Shown here piece by piece: positions 3,796-40,708 of a stretch of DNA of 64,000 bases. Within the stretch, counting starts at the first letter, position 1. Each line of letters begins with the position of its first letter. The notes under the pieces were generated by a model. That model did no database searches. It was not told where the DNA came from and saw only the letters and a program-made list of their open reading frames with translations. The translations under genes and the position numbers were made by a program. Origin of the DNA: an uncultured Thermoplasmata archaeon (GTDB lineage Archaea; Thermoplasmatota; Thermoplasmata; UBA10834). Location of the stretch: the NCBI GenBank assembly GCA_963719945.1, contig CAVRDX010000001.1, forward strand, positions 832,001 through 896,000, given 5' to 3'.

Positions 3796-6700
3796 CAGCA
3801 CCTAGGTCCCTGAACTTGCCAGGCGGAACAACGATTTCGAACCTCGCCCCTTTGCCGTATTCACCTACTTCTTGTATCGTGATATTGGTCATACTTAGGA
3901 TTTCACGGCACAGGAACAACCCAAGACCGGTATTGCGTCCATATCCCTTGTCGAATATGAGTTCTTTCGATTCCGGAAGAACTCCAGCTCCATCATCCTC
4001 ATACGTGATGAAAAGACGCTTCCCTCTGATGACGGCATGAACGCCAATTCTATTCACATTCTTCCCATGACGCAATGAATTGTCGATGAGATTGAACATC
4101 ACCTTCTCAAACATGGGATCCGCCCAGATCTCGATATTGCCTAAGTCTTGTTCGACTCTAACATCACCGATGTCGAGCGAGCTCAACGCGCCTGCGAGGT
4201 CGAGTCGCATATGAACCCATTCGGGAGCCTTCGTCCCGGCCTTCTGATATGAACCAGCGAACTCCAGCTGCATGATGACTGTTGAACAGGCATCCCTGGC
4301 CAAACGATGATGATTGATCCTATCTCTTTCGTTCTTATCGTCCTCCATGAGTGTGAGTGCACCCATGATTATGCCTATCTGATTCATCACATCGTGACGG
4401 GTGATACTGCCCATGAGATTCAGCTTCTCGTTAGCCAGTCTCAGCGCTTCCTCCGCCTGCTTCCTGGCAGTGATGTCCATCACGATGCCCTGGTGGTAAT
4501 CGATGCCGCCCTTGTCTCCAGGACGGACAGTCGTTCGATCATCAACCCAGCGAACGTTTCCATCCTTCGTGATGACCCTATATTCAAGAGTGAACTCGCG
4601 ATCCGAATTCTTATGATGATCCATCAGCTCCCCGAGGATTCGCCCACGGTCTTCTGGCAGGATAATCGATGAATAGGATGGATTACCAGCGAGCAGCTCA
4701 GAAGGCGGATAGCCGAACTGTCGAACGCTATTGGTCACGAACTGAACTTTCCTCTCGCCATCGAAGGTCCATCGGAATACCACTGCAGGGCTAGCGTTGA
4801 CAATCGTCTCCAACTCCTCGAGGCTCGCCATGACGGTCCGCAAGGCATCCTCAGCCATCTTCCGCTCGGTCGTATCACGGGCGATCGCCAGCAGTGCAGG
4901 TCTCCCAGAATAATCGATCAGTCTGACATTGATCTCAAGAGGCAGCTCAGATCCATCTTTGCGAATCAGGACGAACTCATATGAATCTTCACCGATTGAT
5001 TCAATCTTATCCCGACGCTCATTGAATGAAGATGCCAAATCTGGCCTTTCGAGATCGAAGATTGTCTTTGTCATCAGCTCATATCGCGAATAGCCTGTAG
5101 ATGTGACCGCTGTCATGTTCACATCGAGGAATCGTCCGTCCAAGTCGATTATGAATATACCATCGCTCGCATTGTCGAATAGCGTTCTGTATTTCCGTTC
5201 AGATTCGGAAACCTGTTCCTCGGCCTCTTTCCGACTAGTTATGTCAAAGATAACTCCATGGAGACGAACGACAGCACCCTCAATATCTCGCACAGCGGTT
5301 GTCCGCTCGTCCACCCAACGGATTTCGCCAGTCGTGGTCATTATCCTGTATTCGTGATGCCAATTGCGAATTCCCTTGCCCGTCTTGCTTCTTATCTCGG
5401 CCTCCAATCGAATGACGTCATCTGGATGGATCAGATCGGAGTATTTCAAGCGACCAGACAGCAAATCATCCTGGGAATAGCCAAATCGAGATATGTTCTT
5501 GGAAACGAATCGAACTGGCCAGCCAGGTTGATCTGACCAAATAAGGACCGTCACCGGGCTCGAATCTATTATTTCGTCAATCTCCTCTAGTCTAGCCATA
5601 GTATCGCGAAGCGCCTGCTCGGTCTTTCTCCGCTCAGTGATGTCGAAGCCAATGAACACGGCATCAGATTCCCCACCAAGAAGCATCCTGCTTATCTGCC
5701 ACGAAACAAACTTCTCCTCACCGGTCTTCGACCTCATCGAAGCCTCGAGATAAGGGACGGATGGTTCATTCCAGATTCGTTCATCACCAAGGATGCTGAA
5801 CATCGAAGTCTCAGATGATTCATCCGCGAAAACATCGCGCCAGTTTCGACCCTGGACATCATCACGCAGATATCCTGTGAGTTTCTCAGCTTCATCGTTG
5901 AAAAATCGAATTAGTCCATCGTTCTGAACTGCGACCACGATAGCGTTCGCATTCTGTATCAGATTCTCTGCGTGTTCCTTCGCCATCCGGAGCAGATTCT
6001 CTGCAGTTTTGCCCTCCGTGATGTCGAGGATCACACCCTGAACGAGATATGGTCGACCGCTCTCATCAACCACATTATTCGCGATTTCGTGCACCCATCT
6101 GATAGCACCATCCTTTCTCACTATTCGATAAAGCCGACTCTCAGAGTGGCCGGGAGTCGCCTTGAACTTATCAGCGAGTTCATGGAGAGACCGCACATCA
6201 TCTGGATGGACCAACTGATCCCATCGCAATCGAGACGCGGTGAAATCTTCCAGAGGGTAGCCAGTGATCTCCTCTACAGGACCATGCATGAATCTAGTTT
6301 CGAAATCCAGATTACCCTGGTAAGAAATCCCTGGAAACTGTTGGACAAAAGTCCGATACATGTCCTCGTTCGTCCTCAGAGACTCCTCCGCCCTCCACCT
6401 ACGCACAGACTCACGTAAGATTGTCGGGAGAATTGAACGAACCATTGCATCAGTGGTGTCTGATCTGATGTATGCATCAGGTCCGTCCTCAGATAGACCC
6501 GTGTCAGAGCCCACCGGTACCTCGGATGCTAATGCGATGAATGGAATGTGCCCATACTGGCCTCTGACGGACCTTAACAGGCGATGGCCATCGATTTCTG
6601 ATACGGAATAATCACATAGGACTGCGTCAAAACCTGATGTGGCCAACTCTCTGAGTGCCTCGTCCTCGGAAGATGCACGCACAAGCTCAAGCCCAGGAAT

Positions 6701-29492: not shown

Positions 29493-29593
29493 GGGCCCAT
29501 GGTCTAGCGGTTATGACACCTGCTTGACATCGCTTTTCCTCCGGGAAGGCGTCAAATTGCAGGTAATCACCGGTTCGAATCCGGTTGGGCCCA
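29493..29593 (+). tRNA. tRNA-Val(GAC) with 28-nt intron (29530-29557) at 37/38
   Basis: Acceptor GGGCCCA/TGGGCCC, anticodon stem CCTGC/GCAGG, GAC 29526-28; canonical BHB (TTGA/TCAA helix, 3-nt bulges, 9-bp intron stem); T-arm ACCGG TTCGAAT CCGGT. Confidence 0.96.
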
Positions 29594-29623
29594 CTATCTT
29601 CCTTCTGGCTATTTTCCAATCAG
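29581..29623 (+). repeat. att-like repeat copy 0 (tRNA-Val 3' end plus 27-bp trailer)
   Basis: CCGGTTGGGCCCACTA-N7-TCTGGCTA-TTTTCCAATCAG. Confidence 0.85.
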
Positions 29624-29798
29624 GGTCTTTTTGTACCGGGATATGAACCTTTTCATCGCCTTTCCTCGTGAAATCGATGGTTCAGGTTGCAACGCATGCA
29701 GAACCCGACAGACTGGCTGATTTCTATCGCAGGAAATTGACGACGATCTGGACCCCTTCTCAGCTTCTTTTCCTGCTATTGCTACAGAGGAATTAATG

Positions 29799-29826
29799 GG
29801 TGGACCGAAAGGGATTTGAACCTCTG
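29799..29826 (-). other. Degenerate tRNA 3'-end fragment (tRNA-Ala-like)
   Basis: Minus strand reads CAGAGGTTCAAATCCCTTTCGGTCCACC: T-loop plus acceptor 3' strand with U70 and A73. Confidence 0.55.
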
Positions 29827-29877
29827 AAGTGCCAGTGTGTCAAGACTCGGATTCAATCAACGGGGAATTGGCCGGAG

Positions 29878-30060
29878 CTAACCCCCTTTCTTTTCCTTCA
29901 AATTCTTGTTCGGAGTGAAGATTCCAGCAGATGAACTAATCAAACCGATTCCGATAATGCCCACAACAGCTGCCACACCAGGTTCAATCTTACCCATCAA
30001 CAATAGCCCTGAAGCGATTCCACAAATCACCAATCCAGTGATGAAAAGAATCTTAATCAT
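29878..30060 (-). CDS. Small two-TM membrane protein
   Basis: 60 aa, two hydrophobic helices, basic tail; GAGGG SD. Confidence 0.6.
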   Translation of the reverse strand: MIKILFITGLVICGIASGLLLMGKIEPGVAAVVGIIGIGLISSSAGIFTPNKNLKEKKGG

Positions 30061-30227
30061 TGCCAGTCCCTCTCTTGGTCGAATCGCCTCAGGTGGTTTA
30101 AGGGTTTCTCCGGAGTCCCGCTCCTATGGCATTTTCCGAGGCGAGGCTCAACCCCCCCCCCCCTTCCCTGTTTTCAGAACGGTACGAATTCTTATCTATG
30201 AAGAACTCGATGAACAAAACGAAGGAA

Positions 30228-30572
30228 ATGATGCTATATCTGACAAGCTACAATCTGAAAGATGGGCGTGCTGGGGAATACTCTGCTTGGGTGAAGAAGA
30301 ACAAGAAGAGCATACAGGACCATGCACCTCCGGGATGGAAGTTTCGCGGGATTTATGGATCTGTTCTGGGCTTTGGTCGGTATGATGTCACCGAGATATG
30401 GGAGCTCAGGAAGTACGCTGACTTCGACACCTTCCGCGACTGGGACGACAAGGTCAGTCTCCGATTGCAGGCGGAAGCGCAAGACTTCATGCTACCCGGG
30501 GCGAATGAATCGACATTGCTTAGAGAAGTCAGCGATGTTGTGGTCATCGATCACAAGAAGCCGAAGAAGTGA
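30228..30572 (+). CDS. Hypothetical protein, dimeric alpha+beta barrel-like
   Basis: YNLK.G...EY..W...GWKFRGIY....G.YDVTEIWE...YADFD; start uncertain (30198-30231). Confidence 0.65.
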   Translation: MMLYLTSYNLKDGRAGEYSAWVKKNKKSIQDHAPPGWKFRGIYGSVLGFGRYDVTEIWELRKYADFDTFRDWDDKVSLRLQAEAQDFMLPGANESTLLREVSDVVVIDHKKPKK

Positions 30573-30916
30573 ATCTAGTCGTCCTAAACCTTTTGGTCTT
30601 TCCGCCCCTATGGCCTTTTGCGCGCTCTCAGATGCGGTTCGAGGCGGGATTCGCCAAGACCGAATAACGACCGGTTCCAACGTCGTTGTCGCGACCGGTT
30701 ACGACCTATCGTGACGCTCTATCGTGAAACACGATCTTCAAAGAGCTGTACTGGCGCCACCTGCTCGTCTGTAGCTCGTCTCATCTCGTGAGAACGGTGC
30801 GAGTGCCGGCACGCGCTTCGGACGCCTATTGATGCAAGGAATCATGAAGAGGAACAAGAAGGAGGAAAAGAAAAAGATCAAGAGGTTTCTCGGACTGGCC
30901 TTCTGCTATCGATAAT

Positions 30917-31005
30917 GAATTAGAATCCGAGCCGCACTATCTGGCCGCGCACGAGTTCAGGCCCGGTTGGGCCCACTACATCTTATCTGGCTAAATTCTA
31001 ATCAG
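30917..31005 (+). repeat. att-like repeat copy 1 (89-bp site with tRNA-Val core at 30963-30978)
   Basis: 16/16 core match; same N7-TCTGGCTA-..AATCAG trailer; terminal inverted repeat ATTAGAAT/ATTCTAAT. Confidence 0.85.
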
Positions 31006-31111
31006 CGTTTTGGGTTTTTCGCAACAGGTGCTTCCCAGGCTGTCGCATGAGGGAGAACGCGGGTTCGAATTTAATCAGTGACAGAGCGTCTATATTACCA
31101 CGGACACCATT

Positions 31112-31723
31112 ATGGGTCCGAGGGGAAAAATGGCGGGGTCGTCGGGAAACTCGAAGAGCAGTGTAATTCTGACGTTCGTCGCAGTGTTCTTCGTTATGGC
31201 ATCAGCATGGATGACATGGTACACCATCTCCAACGAGCATACGACTGTGTCCGAGTATTGGCTGGACCACTTCGATCCGGAATGGGGCAATTATGGAGTC
31301 GAGACATATGACATCTATGACCAGGTTGACGAAGTGATGTTGGGACTGAAGTTTTTCACCATTCTGTGGTTCCTTGCAGCTCTATTCTTTGTGGGTCAAA
31401 TCATGACAGACAAATCCGGTCCTATCAGGGAAATCATCGCGGGTGCAACTCCTATTGCTTTGGGCATTGGGATGCTGGCATACTTTGCACTAGCGTTCCC
31501 TGGAGCTTGTCCTTCACCGTTAGTCTCAGGATTCTTTTCGAGCACAACGGTCGGCGGCGTCGTGTATACAGGAAGCCCCGGAGGAGGATTTTATCTGGTT
31601 GCAGTAGCCTGTGTATTTCAGGCATTGGCAGTAACGCTTCGTTTCAAATCAGTCTTCTCAAAACCGCGTTCGCCTGAACCCACCGCATGCGAGGCTCGCG
31701 TTGGCACGGAACCCCCGAAGTGA
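31112..31723 (+). CDS. Four-TM membrane protein (cassette cargo)
   Basis: Four hydrophobic segments; W.WY and PGGGFYL motifs. Confidence 0.7.
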   Translation: MGPRGKMAGSSGNSKSSVILTFVAVFFVMASAWMTWYTISNEHTTVSEYWLDHFDPEWGNYGVETYDIYDQVDEVMLGLKFFTILWFLAALFFVGQIMTDKSGPIREIIAGATPIALGIGMLAYFALAFPGACPSPLVSGFFSSTTVGGVVYTGSPGGGFYLVAVACVFQALAVTLRFKSVFSKPRSPEPTACEARVGTEPPK

Positions 31724-31848
31724 GCTGCATCATATCCGACGGATCAGACCTAATGAAATTTCGTGCAGAGAAGGTTTGAGGAAGGAAAGAAGAAAATGAT
31801 CTGCTGCGTTCCACCTCGAAATCCCCAGATTGCAGATTAGATTACAGC

Positions 31849-31883
31849 TAGTGTGCCCTACTCGAATCGGGTTGGGCCCACTA
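31849..31883. repeat. att-like repeat copy 2, palindromic (inverted plus direct tRNA-Val 3' end)
   Basis: TAGTGTGCCCTACTCG-AAT-CGGGTTGGGCCCACTA; 13 Watson-Crick pairs plus 1 G-T out of 16. Confidence 0.8.
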
Positions 31884-32125
31884 CATATTCTTGCCAGATA
31901 ATGGACTACAGGATTCAGACCGCATGATTTCGCATACTTCGAAGTCTTGAGCCTTTATGCTGAATGACGCTTGGTTCGGGACCAAATAGACCCACTCTTG
32001 AGACGTTTTGAATACATAGAGAATGCGAGCCGAGAACCATGGAATTCAAGACCATTCCACGATGGTCGTATGTTTCGATGCAAATAGAGGCACATTAATG
32101 CACAACAAGTGATAGGGAATCGACA

Positions 32126-32665
32126 TCAAATCACAAGATCATCCCATATCTCAAGGAACCCGTCAGTCAGGCTTGTCAGCTGTGGATTGAATCGCAATAG
32201 TATCTTCTCGATTCTTGCGGGATCAGAAATGAGATACTCAGAAGTGTTGCCATTCCTGGAAACCACACCGACTGCAAGGAGTTTCTCAAGGTGGTGACTA
32301 ACCGTGGATGGTGATTTCCTGACGCCATGAACAATCTCTCCGTGAGTCATAGCTCCATTCCTCAGGATTAGAATCGTGATTCTGAACGGGACCCGTTGCC
32401 TCAGAAGACTTACAATGCGCTTATCAGGGGCACTGAAATGGCTCCAGTCTGCACCAATGGCGTCCCTCGGAAAGTAACGCTTGTACTGTCCATCCTGAAT
32501 GGAATATACAAGCTCGCGCTTCTCAAGATAAAGGAGATGATAGTCGACCAGGTTCGCGGAGAGTCTGACCTCCCTGCCAATCTCCCTGAGATGCATGCCA
32601 GGATACTTGCAGACTGCATCGAATATCCGGCGACGACTATCCAGTTCAAGCGCGAGCTCGTTCAA
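32126..32665 (-). CDS. Tandem winged-helix transcriptional regulator
   Basis: RRRIF..V...PGMHLREI...VDYHL..LE; second HTH SPSTVSHHLEKL. Confidence 0.88.
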   Translation of the reverse strand: MNELALELDSRRRIFDAVCKYPGMHLREIGREVRLSANLVDYHLLYLEKRELVYSIQDGQYKRYFPRDAIGADWSHFSAPDKRIVSLLRQRVPFRITILILRNGAMTHGEIVHGVRKSPSTVSHHLEKLLAVGVVSRNGNTSEYLISDPARIEKILLRFNPQLTSLTDGFLEIWDDLVI

Positions 32666-32675
32666 GAGAAACCTC

Positions 32676-32936
32676 CTAGGGTTTCAATGTCGCCAGAAAG
32701 ATTGATGCAAGAATGCCAATATCCAATAGCCCAGATGTAATCCATAGGTTGGTATCATTGAGGACGTCGGTGAACAACTGGACGGACAACAGAATACCTT
32801 TCGCGAAGAACAACATGAATGCGAAAACAATCAGCAGAGTCTTCGATTTCCCAGATTCTCTAAATGCCTTGGCCGCAATGATAGCCAGTGTGAGCGAGAA
32901 GATCACGATAAACGCATAGACCAAATTCTCAAGCAT
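32676..32936 (-). CDS. Small three-TM membrane protein
   Basis: AFRESG..K.L....AF.LFF.KG; GGAGG SD; in operon with the wHTH gene. Confidence 0.75.
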   Translation of the reverse strand: MLENLVYAFIVIFSLTLAIIAAKAFRESGKSKTLLIVFAFMLFFAKGILLSVQLFTDVLNDTNLWITSGLLDIGILASIFLATLKP

Positions 32937-32973
32937 AGAAACTCCTCCATATCAAGGGGAATGTGGTTGCTCC

Positions 32974-33990
32974 TTAATGATTCCTTGAGCTACGATCACG
33001 TTTCACAAATGCAATGGACATAACAACGATACCAGAGGCTACTCCGAGACCAGACAGATAGAGCACTGGATCTGGACTTAGATCATCTGAATCCGAATAG
33101 TAGGTCATGTTGCTTCGAACCTTGAAAACAACATCCTGGATCAGAGTATTCGCCTTCGGATAGGACAACGTGAGATTTCCTTCATCCCAACTACCTGCGG
33201 CTCCCAATCCTATTGTGCTGCCATCAACGCACATGCTATTCCTCCACTGGATAGACCCGCCTGCGAAAGGCTGAGCTGTCGTTATGTTCAATAATATGCC
33301 AGTATTAGATTCAAGATATGACATTCCCGCGCTTGACTGGGACCGGATCAATATCCTTACTCCAATCGCATTGCTCTCATCCGAGAAGTTGTAACGCGAG
33401 ATTCTCAGACTCATATGAATCTCAGTTGGATCAATATCACCGCCTAAAGTGAAGAACACATAATTCGAATTTGTGACGAAGACCAGCGTAACCAGCCCGT
33501 CCTCGGATATTGCAGTGTAGGTGGTTCTAGTTCCCCAATCCGGCGTATTCTCGCATAATGGTTGGGACAGTGTGAATCTCTCATTCGAGATATCAACGCT
33601 GGAGATCACAGAGTCCTCAGGACCAAAGGAAGTGCTTCCATTGTTCTGGAATTCGAAGACCGACAATATCGAGAAACTCATGCTCCAATTTAGCGGGCCA
33701 GGCACATAGATACCGTTGGCCAATTCATTGAAGTCGCTGGGGATCAGAATAGGGGAGCTTTGACGGATATAATCGATATCGAAGGTCCCATCAGAAAATG
33801 ATGCGAGAAATGCATCAGGACTATTGGATTTTGACTGTGTCGATAATGCATAGAACTCGTCTGAAGTTGAAACAGCAACGCCAGATCGTCCTGCAGGCAG
33901 ATCACTCGCAGCAACCGAGCAGGATACCATGATAAGAACTGCCATTGTAACAACCGACATGCAGCCAAATGCCCCATTTCTTCGAACCAT
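32974..33990 (-). CDS. Secreted/cell-surface protein with a C-terminal membrane anchor
   Basis: Signal peptide, Ser/Thr-rich beta body with N-x-S/T sequons, C-terminal TM plus basic tail. Confidence 0.7.
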   Translation of the reverse strand: MVRRNGAFGCMSVVTMAVLIMVSCSVAASDLPAGRSGVAVSTSDEFYALSTQSKSNSPDAFLASFSDGTFDIDYIRQSSPILIPSDFNELANGIYVPGPLNWSMSFSILSVFEFQNNGSTSFGPEDSVISSVDISNERFTLSQPLCENTPDWGTRTTYTAISEDGLVTLVFVTNSNYVFFTLGGDIDPTEIHMSLRISRYNFSDESNAIGVRILIRSQSSAGMSYLESNTGILLNITTAQPFAGGSIQWRNSMCVDGSTIGLGAAGSWDEGNLTLSYPKANTLIQDVVFKVRSNMTYYSDSDDLSPDPVLYLSGLGVASGIVVMSIAFVKRDRSSRNH

Positions 33991-34151
33991 ATATAACATG
34001 AAAAACAGGGGGCTCGTGAATATAATACGGTTATTGGACAACGGTCGAATTCGAACGAACTTGATAGGCTATATGAGCGACCCTTCACGCGAATATATTC
34101 GTTTGATAGAAATATGAAAGGGTTTATGGGCTGGCCCTGGAAATTCAGATT

Positions 34152-34240
34152 GGATTGGAATCAAAAATACACTGCCTGGCCTACGGTTTGTTCAGGCCCG
34201 ATTGGGCCCACTATAGCCCTTCCAGCCATTTTTCAATCAG
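34152..34240 (+). repeat. att-like repeat copy 3 (89-bp site with tRNA-Val core at 34198-34213)
   Basis: 15/16 core match; ungapped alignment to copy 1 (58/89 by hand count); terminal inverted repeat GATTGGAA/TTTCAATC. Confidence 0.85.
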
Positions 34241-34421
34241 ACGGTATCGCGCGCCGAGAAGAATGACTATTGCGCATTCATCGTCCATAGCGCTTGGAGA
34301 CCCTCAGACAACTCCTGACGTCGGCTATCTCGTCGGACCATTCAATCTGAATCATTGTCCAGATCGCAGCGTTTCGAGAAATGATCCTGGCACGCCAATA
34401 GGAATGCTGAGCCCATTCTTC

Positions 34422-35129
34422 TCAATTCCACCAGTGGATATCATCATTCAACTCTTCGCTATGCCAAGAATAGAATTTGCCATCGTGCAGCGCGCAACTA
34501 TACTCGCCCCAATATGCGTACACCGACTGAGGTGGCGCATAGACGAGGGCAAATCGATAGATGACATCGTTCCAGATAGATGGTGATTCGAAGAGAATAC
34601 TATCCCCTTGATTGAATTCCCCATCCCCGATGATATCGGTAATGATGAAACTATGGATATCGGCAGATACTTGCGTTCCTGAACTCAGCATTTCTTGAAT
34701 TGTGAGATTCGCAAGAGGAAATACGGTATATCCGATTGCACCATCGCTGATTGCCCCGCAATAACATTGCATATATGTGTAGTTAGTAGCGATGGACGGA
34801 TCCAAATTCGAGACCCATTCAATTCCTTCATCGGTCAGGATTAGTGGCGTATCTTCGGAGGGATATGGTGGCCAAATGTAACTCTCAAGGTTCCATGAAT
34901 ATGCGAGAATGCAGCTCAGCACCAACATGGCAGCGATTGCGAGAATAATAGTCCGTCGAGGACCACTCTTCAGATTCTCTCGGATGAATTCACGAATGAC
35001 TTCGGTGTCAGACATCCGTTTCTGAGATGATTCATTCGTCACAAATAGGAGCGCGCCGCATGATATGCAGAACTCCATAGCATCATGATTCTCAGTAGCG
35101 CATCTCGGGCACTTTATCAGACTTCCCAC
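34422..35129 (-). CDS. Zinc-ribbon, single-TM protein with an extracellular domain
   Basis: KCPRCATEN....FCISCG; TM; D..GDG.FNQGD loop; start GTG 35129 or CTG 35120. Confidence 0.7.
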   Translation of the reverse strand: MGSLIKCPRCATENHDAMEFCISCGALLFVTNESSQKRMSDTEVIREFIRENLKSGPRRTIILAIAAMLVLSCILAYSWNLESYIWPPYPSEDTPLILTDEGIEWVSNLDPSIATNYTYMQCYCGAISDGAIGYTVFPLANLTIQEMLSSGTQVSADIHSFIITDIIGDGEFNQGDSILFESPSIWNDVIYRFALVYAPPQSVYAYWGEYSCALHDGKFYSWHSEELNDDIHWWN

Positions 35130-35285
35130 AACCGTATGTGGAATGTCATCGAGCAATATCTTCTTTTCTCTCTATCTGTACCAAAGAGAGTGGCTCTGAT
35201 CATCAACTGGTTCACACCTATCCCAGTTCGCGCACACATTCTCGATTGTGGCTGCGGAATCCCACAAGAAAGGAGATATCCATCC

Positions 35286-35801
35286 ATGATAGTACAGGAA
35301 GATGCGATGGAAGACACAATCACGTGCCCAGCCTGCGGCACATTAATCAGGTCGGATTCAACGTTCTGCAGATCCTGCGGAAAGTCGATCAGGAAATGCC
35401 CGAGCTGCAGCTCCATCATCCTTGAGGGGGTCATGTTCTGTCCGAATTGCGAGACGCCGCTTTTTCAGACAAATGAACATTCGGAGACTTCACCGCAGAA
35501 TGTCGATTCGGAGACTACACACCTCATATGGGAAGGGGTTCCGTTTTCCGGGCTGCAAAAGACATCCCAGACCAAGCGCCAGTGGAGGATAACAGTCGTG
35601 ATATTCGCGACATACGCGATCGCCTGTATATTGATGATCGCATGGATCATGCTGAAGAAATCCACTGAAGACGTGTGCTGTATCTCGGGGTTTGTCATCG
35701 GATTGGCATTCTTCAGTGCATTCACCTTGTGGGTCAGATATTGGGTTGGTCGAAGCGGGGCTGAACACGAAGAGCGCAAGAAGTGGAAAGATCCATTGTA
35801 G
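35286..35801 (+). CDS. Double zinc-ribbon membrane protein
   Basis: CPAC..FCRSCG, CPSC..FCPNC; two TMs; AGGAG SD. Confidence 0.75.
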   Translation: MIVQEDAMEDTITCPACGTLIRSDSTFCRSCGKSIRKCPSCSSIILEGVMFCPNCETPLFQTNEHSETSPQNVDSETTHLIWEGVPFSGLQKTSQTKRQWRITVVIFATYAIACILMIAWIMLKKSTEDVCCISGFVIGLAFFSAFTLWVRYWVGRSGAEHEERKKWKDPL

Positions 35802-35905
35802 GCAAATTGAGCCACCGCACAGCCTACGACTTCTCGTGTCGGCGGGAGATACGATTCAGCCATGAACGCACAGGTTGAATCCTTCCAAGAAGATCAGGCG
35901 ATGAT

Positions 35906-36421
35906 TCAGAGGAAGATGCTATCGAGTTCCTGCAGACTCGCGGTATCGCATATCTCTTCCGCGAACCGTACATGCTCCTCATTAGCCGACGCCACGCCCC
36001 CTTTTAGCAGGTAGGGACGGATGTCCCAGTCAGGAGCGCTGAAGTAAGTCGCCAGCACACACCCGCTCGCACTAAGCCCCACAATCACCAGAGCGTCACA
36101 TCCTTCTTTCTTGAGCATAGCTCCAAACTCGGGATTGCCAAAGGCGCTCGCATGAAGCTTCGTGGCCTTCAGGTCGGTCTTCTCGATCTTGACCGTCTCC
36201 GGGACTTCGAAACGTCTTGTCCCTGGCAGCAATCCGTCCTCCTTATCCTCGGTATATCCCACGACGATAGGGAACTTGTTCCTTCTGAACCAAGCGATCG
36301 CGTCGTTGATGACATCAAGGCGCATCTCCACGGACTTCCTCAAGTCCTGGTTGCTATCAGGGTCGTACAACCAGACATTCTGTATATCCTGGACGAGTAA
36401 TGCGGGTTTCATTTCACTCAT
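35906..36421 (-). CDS. Isochorismatase-family cysteine hydrolase
   Basis: ALLVQDIQN, K.HASAF, VGLSASGCVLAT. Confidence 0.88.
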   Translation of the reverse strand: MSEMKPALLVQDIQNVWLYDPDSNQDLRKSVEMRLDVINDAIAWFRRNKFPIVVGYTEDKEDGLLPGTRRFEVPETVKIEKTDLKATKLHASAFGNPEFGAMLKKEGCDALVIVGLSASGCVLATYFSAPDWDIRPYLLKGGVASANEEHVRFAEEICDTASLQELDSIFL

Positions 36422-36576
36422 CCTTGAAATGCGTCTGCCATTAATATTGATTATTGATATGTCTGGTCAGGCAATAGTCGCATCTCAATTGAGGAAAAGA
36501 GGAGACGTCCAGACGATACTCGTTTTACTAACATGAGCATGCTCATGACTTCAATTGAAGATAGAAATTGCAGCCG

Positions 36577-37635
36577 CTAACAATTGATATCCCTTCTATA
36601 GAGAGAGATAACGGTTATGCCAACCAATATGCCTGTCAGTACTGCCAGGAATAATGCACTCAGCAATGGATCAGGATAAAATTCATAATACGGGACAGAC
36701 CCGTTCAGATCGATGATATCCTGAGGATAGTCATCGAGAAGAAGCGATCGATTGATTGTCTCCGCAGCGAATGATGGTAGGAACCATGGTTTGACACCAC
36801 CTGAGATTAGAATCTGCTGAAGGATCGGAAACAATGCGATGAGGAGCAGAAAAGCGAATACGATAGATCCTGTTGAATTCTTCGAAATAGAACTGATGGC
36901 ATAGGCAAAGGCCAGGCATGCTGCGAAATATAGCAATGACAATGCCAACGAGATCAGAAGGTAATCAGGGAGAGTCCCGAGCCCAGAGTATATTAGAGCA
37001 GACATTGCCAGATAGAATGAGACGATTGCCACTATTCCAACCATCAGGCTTGCGATGAATTTGCCAATCACGATAGCGATTCGTTTCACAGGATTCGGAT
37101 ATACAAGATATGCAGTTCGATTCTGTATCTCGCCTGCGAGCGAATCCGAGCCAACGAGAATCGCGATTATCACAATCATATAAGGGAGAATGATCATCAG
37201 CTTATCGGCCATTTCGATTGGATAGTACCCCCAATCATAGGTGACTTCGAGCATATTATCACTGAGGTCTGATTTAAACAATATCGGACCATCTGCATAT
37301 AGCCAATCATCTACTGAAATCAGAGTGCCGTTGAGCCTGATTTCGATGCTCTCTGGAAAGATCCGCCAATTGAGATAATAGATCATTGAATGATATCCGG
37401 TGGAGTATTCGCTCTCAACAGGAGCAGGCATTATGAATTCGACAGAGTGACCGGAATACTCGTCGCCAAATGCAAGAGGCAAGTAGTACAGCATCAGGAC
37501 GATACCGACGGAAAGTGCCATGATTGAGACGAACCTGAACCCTTTGATATATCTGATGAGTTCGAGACGGGCAATCACAGAGATCTGTGCCAAATCGGAG
37601 GGAACTCTTGATCCAGGAACCTTCCGGTCAGTCAT
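36577..37635 (-). CDS. ABC-2 type transporter permease
   Basis: DSLAGE...RTAYL....PVKR..IVIGKF; multiple TMs; ends YRRDI. Confidence 0.88.
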   Translation of the reverse strand: MTDRKVPGSRVPSDLAQISVIARLELIRYIKGFRFVSIMALSVGIVLMLYYLPLAFGDEYSGHSVEFIMPAPVESEYSTGYHSMIYYLNWRIFPESIEIRLNGTLISVDDWLYADGPILFKSDLSDNMLEVTYDWGYYPIEMADKLMIILPYMIVIIAILVGSDSLAGEIQNRTAYLVYPNPVKRIAIVIGKFIASLMVGIVAIVSFYLAMSALIYSGLGTLPDYLLISLALSLLYFAACLAFAYAISSISKNSTGSIVFAFLLLIALFPILQQILISGGVKPWFLPSFAAETINRSLLLDDYPQDIIDLNGSVPYYEFYPDPLLSALFLAVLTGILVGITVISLYRRDINC

Positions 37636-38581
37636 ACTGCTCAGCCTCCGACTCGGCGATCCTGTCGAGGTATATGCTCTCGAGAGAGGGACCGCGAGGG
37701 ACGAACGAACTGACGGATAATCCCAACGACATCAATAAGCGCAAGATATTGTGCCTATTCGCAACATCTCCGTTCGAGCAGCTGATCCTGAATATCGTCG
37801 GAGACAACGATTCAACGGAGATAATCCCGTCCAGCTCATTGATTCGGCCTCGAACTTCAGGAGATGGAGCGGTGGCGAATTCGACTTCGATAATGCAGGA
37901 TTTAGATATCTGTTTTAGATTCTCGATGTCATCATAGAGAAGGAGCCGCCCATGATCGATTAGCGCTATGGAATCGCATATCTCCTGCACCTCATTCAGC
38001 ATATGGGAGTTCAGGAGAATCGTGATCTTCATGGATCTCAGAGTCTTCAGGATTCCCCTGATGTGAACCATACCAGTCGGGTCGAGCCCGCTCGTGGGTT
38101 CATCGAGAATCAGTACGGTAGGTTCGTGAAGCAATGCCTGAGCAAGGGCCAGTCTCTGCTTCATCCCCTTTGAGAATCCGCCCACCCTCGAATCTGCCCT
38201 ATCCGACAGCTTGAATTCTTTCAGCAATTCGGTTGTTCTGCTACGGATGAGGACATCATCCATACCTCTGAGCTGGCCAAGGAATCTCAGAATCCTCACA
38301 GGTGTGAGCTGAGGGTAGAACTCAGGGCTCTCAACGACCGAACCTACATCGGACAGAGCAACCTTGGGTTCCTTCCGAACCTCGATGTCATTGATATACG
38401 CAGTCCCTGAGGTCGGCGAAACCAGATTCGTCAGTATCTTGGCGGTGGTCGTCTTCCCCGCTCCATTCGGCCCGAGAAATCCTAAGACCGAACCATGAGG
38501 AACATTCAAAGATAGATGATCGACGGCGACCAGCGATCCAGAATATACCTTCGTCAGATTCTCTATCCTTATCGAACCCAT
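37628..38581 (-). CDS. ABC transporter ATP-binding protein
   Basis: GPNGAGKTT, FSKGMKQR, ILDEPTSGLDP, SH. Confidence 0.95.
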   Translation of the reverse strand: MGSIRIENLTKVYSGSLVAVDHLSLNVPHGSVLGFLGPNGAGKTTTAKILTNLVSPTSGTAYINDIEVRKEPKVALSDVGSVVESPEFYPQLTPVRILRFLGQLRGMDDVLIRSRTTELLKEFKLSDRADSRVGGFSKGMKQRLALAQALLHEPTVLILDEPTSGLDPTGMVHIRGILKTLRSMKITILLNSHMLNEVQEICDSIALIDHGRLLLYDDIENLKQISKSCIIEVEFATAPSPEVRGRINELDGIISVESLSPTIFRISCSNGDVANRHNILRLLMSLGLSVSSFVPRGPSLESIYLDRIAESEAEQYD

Positions 38582-38848
38582 CCCATCAGCCCGAGATACA
38601 TGCCTTGAGCTACATGAGAGCAACATCGTGAGGATATTATGCTTTCGGGATGTAGATTCCAGGGACTGGGAAGTGCTAGCCCTTGCATCAGGATTCTGAG
38701 GAGAATCCTGTGTAGATCGAAGGCGTTAGAGCATGATGATTTTAGATTGAAAGTCCCGAAAGAATCATATCGCGCGATTGTGCTATTTGACCTCGGTCAG
38801 CGTCCGATCTTCGACCTTTGGGGGGGTCTGATTAGACGCTGAGGGGGA

Positions 38849-40084
38849 ATGACAAGAATGAGGAGTGGTTCGAGTTTAGGAGCGGTAGCGGTCCTTGTGA
38901 TCATGCTCGCCCTAGGCCTTTCTTCACCGATGTCTGCGGGCGACGGCGAGAAGGCCTGGACGGTTATGATATACCTGGACGCGGACAACAATCTCGAAGA
39001 CGCTGCATGGATGAACATGGAGTGGCTCGAGAGTGTTGGGTCGGATGAGAATGTGAACTTCTTGGTACTGTTGGATACGCTCTCAGGCAAGACTGACCTC
39101 CTGTATGTGGAACACGAAGTGTCCACACCAGTGGGGAAGGACTATGGCTATCCAAAAGAAGAGAATATGGGAGATCCTGCGGTGCTTCAGAAGTTCATAG
39201 AGATCGGCATCGAGGATTATCCTGCGTTGTACTACGCGGTCATCCTGTGGGATCATGGTGGCGGATGGAGAGGAATCTGCTGGGATGATTCATACGAGGA
39301 AGACACAGGAATAGAGGATTGCATCACGATGTCGGAGATGAGAGAGGCGTTCGCAGGCGCTTGCGATGCAAAGGATGAGATCATAGACATCGTCGGATTC
39401 GATGCATGTCTGATGGCGATGCCTGAGGTATCCTACGAGTTGAGAGACTACGCAAAATACGTCATATTCAGCGAGGAGACGATCTACGGAACCAGCTTCC
39501 CGTACGAGATGATTGCGCAGGACCTCGTGGACGAGCCGACGATGGACCCACTGGCATGCGTCAGAATGATGGCCGAGGATTACAGCGAATTCTATCTGAC
39601 CAACAACGGGTACCCGGACTGGACGATCAGCATCATGGACATGGATTATATGAGTGAGGTCACAGCGGCTGTGGACTACCTCGGGGAGGAGCTCCTCGAG
39701 TCCCTGCCATACTACTTCAACGCTTACCAGAACGCGAGGGTCATGTCTGACGAATACTACTACTTCTACAACATAGATCTGCGCAACTTCGTGGACAATC
39801 TGTTGGTGGACCCAGTCATCAAAGACAAAGGCATCAGGGAAGCCGCGATGCAAGTGGATAAGGCGATCGGTGACAGCATAATACTGTGCCTGAACAGCTT
39901 CCACAACCGCGATTCCGAAGGTCTCGCAATATACTTCCCATACGCGCCTGGAAGCACTATTGCAGGCCTGAAGCCCGAGTATGAAGACATATCCTTCGCG
40001 AAGACGGGTACCAGCTGGTACGACTTCGTCGAGGCGTTCTCCAAGTTCACGGGACGCGCATGGGGAGGGGCGAAATTCGCCTAG
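38849..40084 (+). CDS. Clostripain-related cysteine peptidase (C11), secreted; paralog 1
   Basis: Signal peptide; WTVMIYLDADNNLE, WDHGGGW (His), GFDACLM (Cys), GLAIYFP. Confidence 0.92.
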   Translation: MTRMRSGSSLGAVAVLVIMLALGLSSPMSAGDGEKAWTVMIYLDADNNLEDAAWMNMEWLESVGSDENVNFLVLLDTLSGKTDLLYVEHEVSTPVGKDYGYPKEENMGDPAVLQKFIEIGIEDYPALYYAVILWDHGGGWRGICWDDSYEEDTGIEDCITMSEMREAFAGACDAKDEIIDIVGFDACLMAMPEVSYELRDYAKYVIFSEETIYGTSFPYEMIAQDLVDEPTMDPLACVRMMAEDYSEFYLTNNGYPDWTISIMDMDYMSEVTAAVDYLGEELLESLPYYFNAYQNARVMSDEYYYFYNIDLRNFVDNLLVDPVIKDKGIREAAMQVDKAIGDSIILCLNSFHNRDSEGLAIYFPYAPGSTIAGLKPEYEDISFAKTGTSWYDFVEAFSKFTGRAWGGAKFA

Positions 40085-40228
40085 ATGAGCCCATGGAAAC
40101 CGGTCAAACCATTTCCATCACTTTTCCATCATGAACAGGTTTCAATCGATATTCGGGATAACCTGAAAATGCTTTCATGCGCATGATATGAAAGAGATGA
40201 TTCGGAAAGACCCTAGGAGGGCTTTCGT

Positions 40229-40708
40229 ATGAGTGAGATAGCGACATTTGCAGCGGGGTGCTTCTGGGGCGTCGAAGCAATATTCAGAAAGGTCCATGGA
40301 GTCATATCCACCCGTGTCGGATACACGGGTGGGAAGACGGATCGGCCTACATACAATCAGGTCTGTTCGGACAGCACAGGCCATGCTGAAGCGGTCGAAG
40401 TCGAATTCGATCCGAGTATGGTCGCATACGGTCATTTGCTGGAGATATTCTGGGACATGCACGACCCGACTACCCTGAACAGGCAGGGACCCGATAGAGG
40501 GACGCAATACAGGTCAGCCATATTCTTTCACAATCCGGAACAGAAGAGGCTAGCCGAAGAATCTCTGAGCGCGCTCGCGCGATCAGACCGATTCACTCGG
40601 AGGAAGATAGTGACTGAGATCGCGGAAGCGGAAGTCTTCTGGCCTGCAGAGGAGTACCATCAACGGTACTTCGAGAAGACTGGAAGAAACAGTTGCGGGA
40701 TCCATTGA
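40229..40708 (+). CDS. msrA: Peptide methionine sulfoxide reductase A
   Basis: GCFWGVE, TGHAE, HDPT..NRQG.D.GTQYRS, AEEYHQ. Confidence 0.97.
   Translation: MSEIATFAAGCFWGVEAIFRKVHGVISTRVGYTGGKTDRPTYNQVCSDSTGHAEAVEVEFDPSMVAYGHLLEIFWDMHDPTTLNRQGPDRGTQYRSAIFFHNPEQKRLAEESLSALARSDRFTRRKIVTEIAEAEVFWPAEEYHQRYFEKTGRNSCGIH

Follow-up and report, generated by a model that had tools for sequence, protein, structure and literature searches.

An array of three small gene units lies directly behind a tRNA-Val(GAC) gene of an uncultured Thermoplasmata archaeon. The array is located in a stretch of 64,000 nucleotides (hereafter, the window; C1:832001-896000) of a 1.78-Mb assembly (G000). We consider it probable, at roughly 60%, that the array is a tandem stack of three non-autonomous, attachment site (att)-bounded cargo units that were inserted by a tyrosine recombinase supplied in trans. 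The repeats separating the units are hybrid sites of the attL/attR type, each consisting of a tRNA-derived core and conserved arms, that characterize a family of tRNA-targeting integrative elements. Our best reading is that the units belong to, or parasitise, this Thermoplasmata family. Sequence comparison further indicates that at least one unit, unit 1, moved recently as a precise core-to-core unit, both between species and between tRNA-Val isoacceptors. The target gene, the sites, and the units are arranged as follows (window positions).

29493-29594, plus strand: tRNA-Val(GAC) with a 28-30-nt intron, the integration target (attB side of site 0; Rfam, ARAGORN -i)
29581-29596, plus strand: core copy 0, the tRNA 3' end (16-mer match)
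29597-30962, plus strand: unit 1 (1382 bp core to core), nearest the tRNA, with evidence of recent movement (comparison with genome G005)
30891-30962, plus strand: type-B arm at the right end of unit 1 (14-site alignment; nhmmer E 1.7e-22)
30963-30978, plus strand: core copy 1 (16/16; 16-mer match)
30979-31867, plus strand: unit 2 (905 bp)
31868-31883, plus strand: core copy 2 (15/16; 16-mer match)
31884-34197, plus strand: unit 3 (2330 bp)
34126-34197: type-B arm of unit 3 (nhmmer E 3e-17)
34198-34213, plus strand: core copy 3 (15/16; 16-mer match), the right end of the array

The target gene is recognized by Rfam at 29493-29593 (RF00005, 58.2 bits, E 6.9e-11) and, when introns are allowed, by ARAGORN, which places tRNA-Val(GAC) with a 28-nt intron at C1:861493-861594. 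ARAGORN run with default settings reports no tRNA in the window, the intron being the cause. The intron (29530-29557) is present in genus g1 and in G045 of genus g2, and it is absent from the g4 genomes G020, G022, and G060. The original prediction was that the tRNA 3' end recurs in direct orientation and delimits units of 1382, 905, and 2330 bp. A match search with a shuffle control bears this out: there are four copies, all on the plus strand, and 0.01 are expected by chance. At up to two mismatches, the only other matches in the whole assembly are the 3' ends of tRNA-Ile(GAT) and tRNA-Val(CAC), and thus the repeat is local and tied to tRNA genes, as the prediction also required. The core repeat is the 3' part of the tRNA gene, as it is in autonomous tRNA-targeting elements, and similarity between the copies reaches past the 16-mer on both sides.

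Could such repeats arise with no site-specific recombination, that is, by homologous exchange between similar tRNA ends, or by local duplication or misassembly there? The tRNA-Val isoacceptors do have approximately 30 nt of their 3' ends in common, and the genomes are assembled from metagenomes. However, identity between the unit ends and the tRNA spans only 14-16 nt, too short a block for efficient homologous exchange or assembler collapse, and the contigs involved measure 906 kb and 455 kb. Furthermore, the flanks of the cores differ between left and right as those of attL and attR do, and the conserved arms point to recognition by a protein. We therefore judge this explanation very improbable.

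The arms are the second component of the sites. At sites 1 and 3, an arm of approximately 70 nt, here called type B, lies left of the core and contains the blocks CTGGCC, GAATTGRAATC, TCTGGC, and GTTCWGGCCC. At the right end of unit 1, the second block is written GAATTRGAATC, and the blocks are spaced by approximately N17 after CTGGCC, N12 before TCTGGC, and N10 before GTTCAGGCCC. An alignment recovers the type-B arm, its blocks at constant distances, at 14 sites from genera g1, g2, and g4; in the source genome, the arm is strong at sites 1 and 3 only. The opposite arm of type-B units, GCCAGA-N12/13-CAGAATYCAGA, is an imperfect inverted copy, and it occupies the left end of unit 3. A 19-nt motif, CTGGCYAWWTTYYAATCAG, opens units 1 and 2 and is carried by the arms that face away from the tRNA body. 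Both unit 2 and a site in genome G010 close with the inverted motif, and the 25-nt arms of the G010 site are 72% complementary. Our description of the arms as inverted is based on the multi-site alignments together with these G010 arms. The remaining arms of the array, and a further site inside unit 1, are the following.

29605-29780, plus strand: left-arm module of unit 1, opening with the 19-nt motif CTGGCTATTTTCCAATCAG; multi-copy in the family and in sediment metagenomes
29800-29896, minus strand: inverted second att-like site in unit 1, a type-B arm followed by a tRNA-Ala(TGC)-like 3' end
30987-31005: left-arm motif of unit 2, CTGGCTAAATTCTAATCAG
approximately 31824-31851: right arm of unit 2, the inverted motif
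approximately 31894-31925: left arm of unit 3, GCCAGA-N13-CAGGATTCAGA

Contig depth over the 29605-29780 module is several-fold to approximately 10-fold that of neighbouring bins. Another copy of the inverted 29800-29896 site closes an island at tRNA-Ala(TGC), at C1:88690-88790.

Together, these features suggest how the system could operate. Specifically, each unit would be an integrative element in miniature, in which both attachment-site arms persist and no integrase is present. In its reconstructed mobile form, the site (attP) would place the tRNA-derived core, consisting of 14-16 identical nt and a degenerate T-arm, between the conserved imperfect inverted-repeat arms. Integration into an intact tRNA gene would restore the tRNA and shift older units outward, so unit 1 would be the newest arrival.

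Comparison with relatives connects this arrangement to movement. The comparison set comprises 46 species genomes of the family. In G005, a congeneric species, the sequence left of the tRNA is collinear with the window at 88.5% identity, and conserved sequence is back at window position 40240 at 86.6%. There, the end of tRNA-Val(GAC) is directly followed by the counterpart of 34214-34240; thus, the 4.6-kb array from core 0 to core 3 is precisely absent. Other content stands behind tRNA-Val(GAC) in G020, G006 (2.8 kb), G022 (a 13.1-kb unit), G060 (a 2.65-kb unit), and G010 (a unit of 9.8 kb that encodes an Opp-type ABC transporter and PKD proteins and has another core behind it). Therefore, the variation in cassette content among relatives that had been anticipated for this locus exists: relatives carry different units or none.

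The array is missing from G005, yet that genome holds unit 1 at a different tRNA gene. Specifically, window positions 29566-30977, from the tRNA T-arm to the end of core 1, are 99.65% identical over 1412 bp to a segment of G005:C2 (L038 5343-6753). This copy sits behind tRNA-Val(TAC), whose left flank is 82.9% identical between G000 and G005. In G005, the tRNA-side core reads CCCACTA, as it does in the unit, and the far core reads CCCACTC, as expected of the native flank, after which unrelated DNA begins; this pattern is the one expected of a crossover inside the 14-16-nt core. Given that unit 1 carries no integrase and moved core to core, the sensible reading is that a recombinase acted in trans. 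A comparison of the empty site at tRNA-Val(TAC) was dropped, as the right flank is not syntenic between G000 and G005. Ends at the core recur elsewhere: the rightmost 380 bp of unit 1 occur in G010 and in one marine-sediment contig, where they stop precisely at the core and give way to another flank, and one metagenome contig exits unit 1 exactly at 30977 into a different flank. In three marine-sediment runs, short contigs that lend weak support carry unit-1 pieces at 99% identity or more, while the 27.5-29.4-kb flank is 90-95% identical to the window. One run (X2) appears to represent the source strain.

What supplies the recombinase? The original prediction was that no recombinase gene is recognizable. 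For the window, this statement stands: six-frame searches give no match to PF00589 or PF00239 and no significant match to TnpB (PF07282). For the genome, it does not, for a full-length integrase is encoded on contig C2. No integrase remnants are detected in the left ends of any of the units by tblastn with family integrases or by local alignment against a shuffled control (z < 1.5), and none are detected in the units by six-frame search, in agreement with the prediction. Six-frame searches, tblastn, and Pfam on open reading frames (ORFs) reveal no integrase, excisionase, or transfer genes belonging to the array. All three units thus lack the hallmark of an autonomous element, an integrase inside the element beside the att site, which is present in the relatives G022 (L076), G023 (L017), and G021 (L098). 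In elements with SSV-type suicidal integrases, the att site falls within the integrase gene, and N- and C-terminal pieces of that gene end up on either side of the element; no such fragments flank any of the core copies. The idea of non-autonomous units served in trans is supported in these points: the units are integrase-free, they are bounded by real recombination-site copies, and unit 1 moved core to core.

The source genome does contain a co-occurring tyrosine recombinase of the kind sought. Beyond a Xer-like gene, there is one other full-length tyrosine recombinase, a 365-aa protein (C2:21651-22745) with a PF00589 match at 32.9 bits and a SAM-like domain. Residues R205, K230, R312, H335, and Y344/Y345 are invariant in its family and, with a family profile, align to XerA of Pyrococcus abyssi (PDB 4a8e); phmmer with the integrase alone against PDB returns nothing, so the profile was needed. 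Family matches occur in 38 of the 46 genomes, and the family is common in Thermoplasmata metagenomes. It can be compared with an integrase of G022 (76% identical by protein alignment; 71% by tblastn over a longer frame) that lies directly behind tRNA-Leu(CAG) and the motif. In G000, tRNA-Leu(CAG) (C1:900492-900577) is followed by the motif, and behind the C2 integrase come the inverted motif and a 21-nt tRNA-Leu end. From this correspondence, we infer that C1:900492-906198 and C2:1-22832 form one element of at least 28 kb at tRNA-Leu(CAG) that spans a contig break (L077, L078, L002), the join of C1 and C2 being inferred, not assembled. The element would start approximately 4.6 kb past the end of the window and carry the integrase at its right end, along with genes for a C5 cytosine DNA methylase, an adenylosuccinate-synthetase-like protein fused to an AAA domain, and a DUF7002 protein. 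Near its tRNA, the element repeats a module of unit 1, namely a tRNA-like fragment, a tiny membrane gene, and an arm.

As the only full-length candidate in the genome, the C2 integrase could supply the activity in trans; judging from sequence relationships, either it or a relative brought in by a visiting element may catalyze unit movement. The units, in turn, may have arisen by deletion from integrase-bearing elements. The 19-nt motif lies between the tRNA end and a full-length family integrase at tRNA-Leu in G022, at tRNA-Ile(GAT) in G023, and at tRNA-Pro(CGG) in G021. The G023 and G021 integrases are more distant family members, and the 3' core of tRNA-Ile(GAT) is the same as that of tRNA-Val. 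Behind tRNA-Val(GAC), a unit-2-type left arm runs into integrase C-terminal remnants in seven relatives (G010, G060, G020, G016, G056, G015, and G045), which points to an origin by decay of integrase-bearing elements for at least unit 2. Kinship to an integrase-bearing element is supported for unit 2 by these remnants; for the type-B arms of units 1 and 3 the link is only indirect, through the tRNA-Ala(TGC) island of G000, where an integrase remnant and a type-B arm occur together. No intact parent element with type-B arms was found. One candidate, the tRNA-Pro integrase of G021:C18, was rejected as owner of a nearby type-B arm, since the core of the distal site is Val-like, not Pro-like.

Three further observations concern such elements and sites. 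The source genome harbors decayed elements at tRNA-Ala(TGC) (C1:84832-88790) and tRNA-Ala(CGC) (C1:479914-480171), and integrase C-terminal remnants adjoin both tRNAs. The tRNA-Ala(TGC) island ends in a type-B arm and a degenerate Ala-like core. Finally, on G021:C18 (L098), two inverted Val-type type-B sites at 256-336 and 3995-4081 flank 3.7 kb, with no tRNA-Val near, and adjoin the tRNA-Pro(CGG) integrase.

Related patterns are seen more widely in the family. In many of the 46 genomes, exact copies of the 12-nt core exceed the number of tRNA genes. Pairs of cores on the same strand, separated by 754-2646 bp, are found on at least 13 contigs, and a reversed-pattern control yields one match in total. 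Two classes of arm can be distinguished. Type-A arms (CTGGCAC..AAAGGTACA paired with TGTACC..GAGCCAG) are located at tRNA-Val and tRNA-Ile genes (L079-L091; for example L090, G014:C9:36800-40000) and are accompanied by a different integrase (348 aa in G022), of which most of the small type-A units contain either pieces or a whole copy. A 2.4-kb type-A unit at tRNA-Ile consists of little beyond the integrase gene, and several units of 1.0-1.9 kb keep only its C-terminal fragment. For type-B units (1.2-13 kb), tblastn and six-frame PF00589 searches reveal no integrase. At least 10 integrase-free type-B units in the family carry intact-looking, unrelated, ordinary genes and no backbone fragments. 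Their cargo includes a GNAT acetyltransferase, a pyridoxal phosphate (PLP)-dependent decarboxylase, a prenyltransferase-like protein, PKD and beta-helix surface proteins, a radical SAM enzyme, a class-V aminotransferase with a cupredoxin, and an Opp-type transporter.

These surveys bear on a rival explanation, in which the units are inert scars: dead remnants of large integrase-bearing elements that integrated one after another and then lost most of their DNA to deletion, that nothing moves today, and whose repeats persist only because they are young or neutral. The unit-2-type arms that run into decayed integrase C-termini in seven relatives and the integrase fragments in most small type-A units fit this picture, as does the lack of near-identical copies of units 2 and 3 elsewhere; tandem integration with loss of the integrase is, moreover, known in archaea (PMC8371274). 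We nonetheless regard the explanation as unlikely. Unit 1 is 99.65% identical at a different tRNA while the flanks are 83-88% identical, which requires recent movement of a small unit; the type-B units, at least 10 in number, hold intact ordinary genes in place of backbone or integrase fragments; and the spacing of the arm blocks is kept across three genera.

A second rival assigns the locus a more active role. Here, tRNA-Val genes would be dedicated capture sites at which cargo-only cassettes with a composite site are inserted, removed, and rearranged by a recombinase encoded on the chromosome or on an element, making the locus a functional analogue of an integron. The same-strand core pairs, the conserved block structure of the arms, and the single unrelated cargo genes of type-B units, none with an integrase, all speak for such a platform. 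It is doubtful, however, for four reasons: no integrase gene is linked to the arrays, no primary site is distinguishable from cassette sites, the genes face both directions, presumably under promoters of their own, and the arms are common to ordinary integrase-bearing elements. Recent movement, moreover, is documented in one case only. For much the same reasons, the earlier proposal that the locus is a new integron-like system is not sustained: an array-linked integrase and an attI/attC distinction are absent, genes occupy both strands, and the sites are ordinary attL/attR hybrids.

The likeness to integrons deserves to be spelled out. As in integrons, small units of unrelated genes, each ending in a recombination site, accumulate at one chromosomal site, and the recombinase is not encoded by the units. 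The array differs from integrons in several respects: neither intI nor attI adjoins it, hairpin-forming attC sites are missing, its genes share neither a promoter nor a direction, and the repeat is a piece of a tRNA gene. An intI, attI, and promoter beside the array, and promoterless cassettes with attC in one orientation, are accordingly lacking here. The analogy is one of outcome, not of membership. A bolder extension, which we offer tentatively and at low odds, is that a family-wide pool of cargo-only mini-cassettes exists, each with a composite att site of approximately 110 nt (a tRNA core between inverted GCCAGA-N12-GATTYCAATTC arms), and that tyrosine integrases acting in trans exchange them between tRNA-Val isoacceptors and species, thereby forming an integron-like gene-capture platform that is unrelated to integrons.

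Several results weigh against our favored interpretation, namely cargo units inserted by a recombinase supplied in trans. The original prediction pointed to circular junctions and core-to-core deletions as signs of activity; neither was seen, in a region covered only by short assembled (Logan) contigs. The exact pattern of the attP junction of unit 1 has no match in metagenome_contigs or genome_contigs. Among the 46 genomes, units 2 and 3 and two G021 units have no near-identical copies, and unit 1 alone has one. The resident integrase resides at a tRNA-Leu core, not a Val core, and its own arm is without the longer type-B block pattern. Two genomes that hold units, G005 (65% complete) and G010 (91% complete), yielded no intact family integrase; across genomes, the co-occurrence of units and intact family integrases is not strict and fails to discriminate among the explanations. 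Inverted repeats in the window's own junctions are weak: a repeat finder reports only an 11-nt pair at site 3 and nothing at sites 1 and 2. Finally, all of the genomes are metagenome assemblies.

A close known parallel is provided by the bacterial cis-mobilizable elements (CIMEs) and tandem accretion at tRNA genes in Firmicutes, in elements related to ICESt1 of Streptococcus thermophilus (CIMEs are defined in PMC5704250). CIMEs, like the units of the array, lack integration and transfer genes, retain attL and attR, and are stacked one behind another where the target gene ends (3'); the units, as CIMEs do, would need the integrase of a related element. The direct repeats expected of site-specific integration are represented in the array by four cores with element-type arms on their inner sides. 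The array departs from CIMEs in its archaeal host, in the 0.9-2.3-kb size of its units, and in containing whole cargo genes with no backbone fragments. In addition, another species has unit 1 by itself at a different tRNA, an observation suggesting that the small unit itself moves and is not only co-transferred with a conjugative partner. To our knowledge, no conjugation or transformation system has been described for uncultured sediment Thermoplasmata.

Two other systems merit comparison. Tycheposons of Prochlorococcus (10.1101/2020.12.28.424599) resemble the array in relying on tRNA-targeting tyrosine recombinases, in pushing older material outward, in leaving partial tRNAs in islands, and in carrying niche-type cargo. 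Tycheposons are, however, defined by an integrase and a replication module, whereas the units, which are smaller by an order of magnitude, contain neither. Archaeal elements with non-suicidal tyrosine integrases at tRNA genes have been reported to integrate in tandem and to lose the integrase after integration (PMC8371274), and the smallest cryptic integrated element in Thaumarchaeota, at 2.6 kb, still has its integrase (PMC6563490). These elements share with the array the tRNA 3' end as target and the direct core repeat as boundary, but they carry an integrase by definition. The literature on archaeal integrated elements (PMC8371274, PMC6563490) gives no description of a population of integrase-free mini-units with conserved arms. 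The array is unusual in that its units are small and consist cleanly of cargo, that the composite arm is conserved, and that one recent jump between species and isoacceptors is documented.

As this locus shows, packets of a single gene, delimited by recombination sites, can stack at a tRNA gene. If movement indeed depends on an integrase, the units would constitute an archaeal counterpart of CIMEs and would offer a simple route by which small adaptive genes, such as those for surface proteins, transporters, and modifying enzymes, could be acquired. The pairing of a compact att site with an integrase could, in that case, also be of use as a genetic tool.

With regard to cargo, the gene contents originally described for the units agree with the ORF listing and with Pfam. 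The genes, and the part of the island beyond the array, are the following.

29878-30060, minus strand: 60-aa hydrophobic (membrane) ORF, unit-1 cargo, without a Pfam match
30198-30572, plus strand: 124-aa ORF (148 aa from the start at 30126), unit-1 cargo, member of an archaeal hypothetical-protein family
31112-31723: 203-aa multi-transmembrane ORF, unit-2 cargo
32126-32665, minus strand: winged helix-turn-helix (wHTH) gene of the unit-3 operon
32676-32936, minus strand: 86-aa transmembrane ORF of the unit-3 operon
32974-34041, minus strand: 355-aa surface (secreted/anchored) protein of the unit-3 operon
34214-40240: remainder of the variable, lower-GC island, opening with a motif-like CCAGCCATTTTTCAATCAG at 34222

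The unit-3 wHTH protein has 179 aa and a double wHTH, with matches to HTH_5 (2e-12) and the HVO_0163 N-terminal HTH (1e-10). Regarding the extent of the island, the placement of the last core at 34198 holds, but the proposed end of the variable island at 34240 does not: the island continues, and sequence conserved with relatives returns only at approximately 40240. The intervening genes (34214-40240) encode zinc-ribbon proteins, an isochorismatase, an ABC-2 transporter pair, and a clostripain-family peptidase. G+C content is approximately 0.54-0.58 before the tRNA and 0.44-0.50 from the tRNA onward. The gene 5' of the tRNA encodes a BPL_N-domain protein and is conserved in relatives. One marine-sediment contig (run X1) is identical to the window over core 2 and the start of unit 3 (31819-32438), jumps to 36045-36412 within the isochorismatase region, and then to the conserved flank at 40244-40408. 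This contig may represent a variant island or an assembly chimera, and we have not used it as evidence.

Unit 1 displays additional internal structure. A direct repeat, CCGCYCCTATGGCMTTTT, at 30108-30126 and 30603-30621 brackets the gene for the 124-aa protein. In contigs from two metagenome runs, position 30107 is joined to 30601 and this gene is missing, and the homology of G010:C93 to unit 1 begins exactly at 30600. The repeat looks like a second, nested exchange point. Upstream of the same gene, contigs from three metagenomes have a poly-C tract (30150-30163) that is reduced by 4 or 5 nt.

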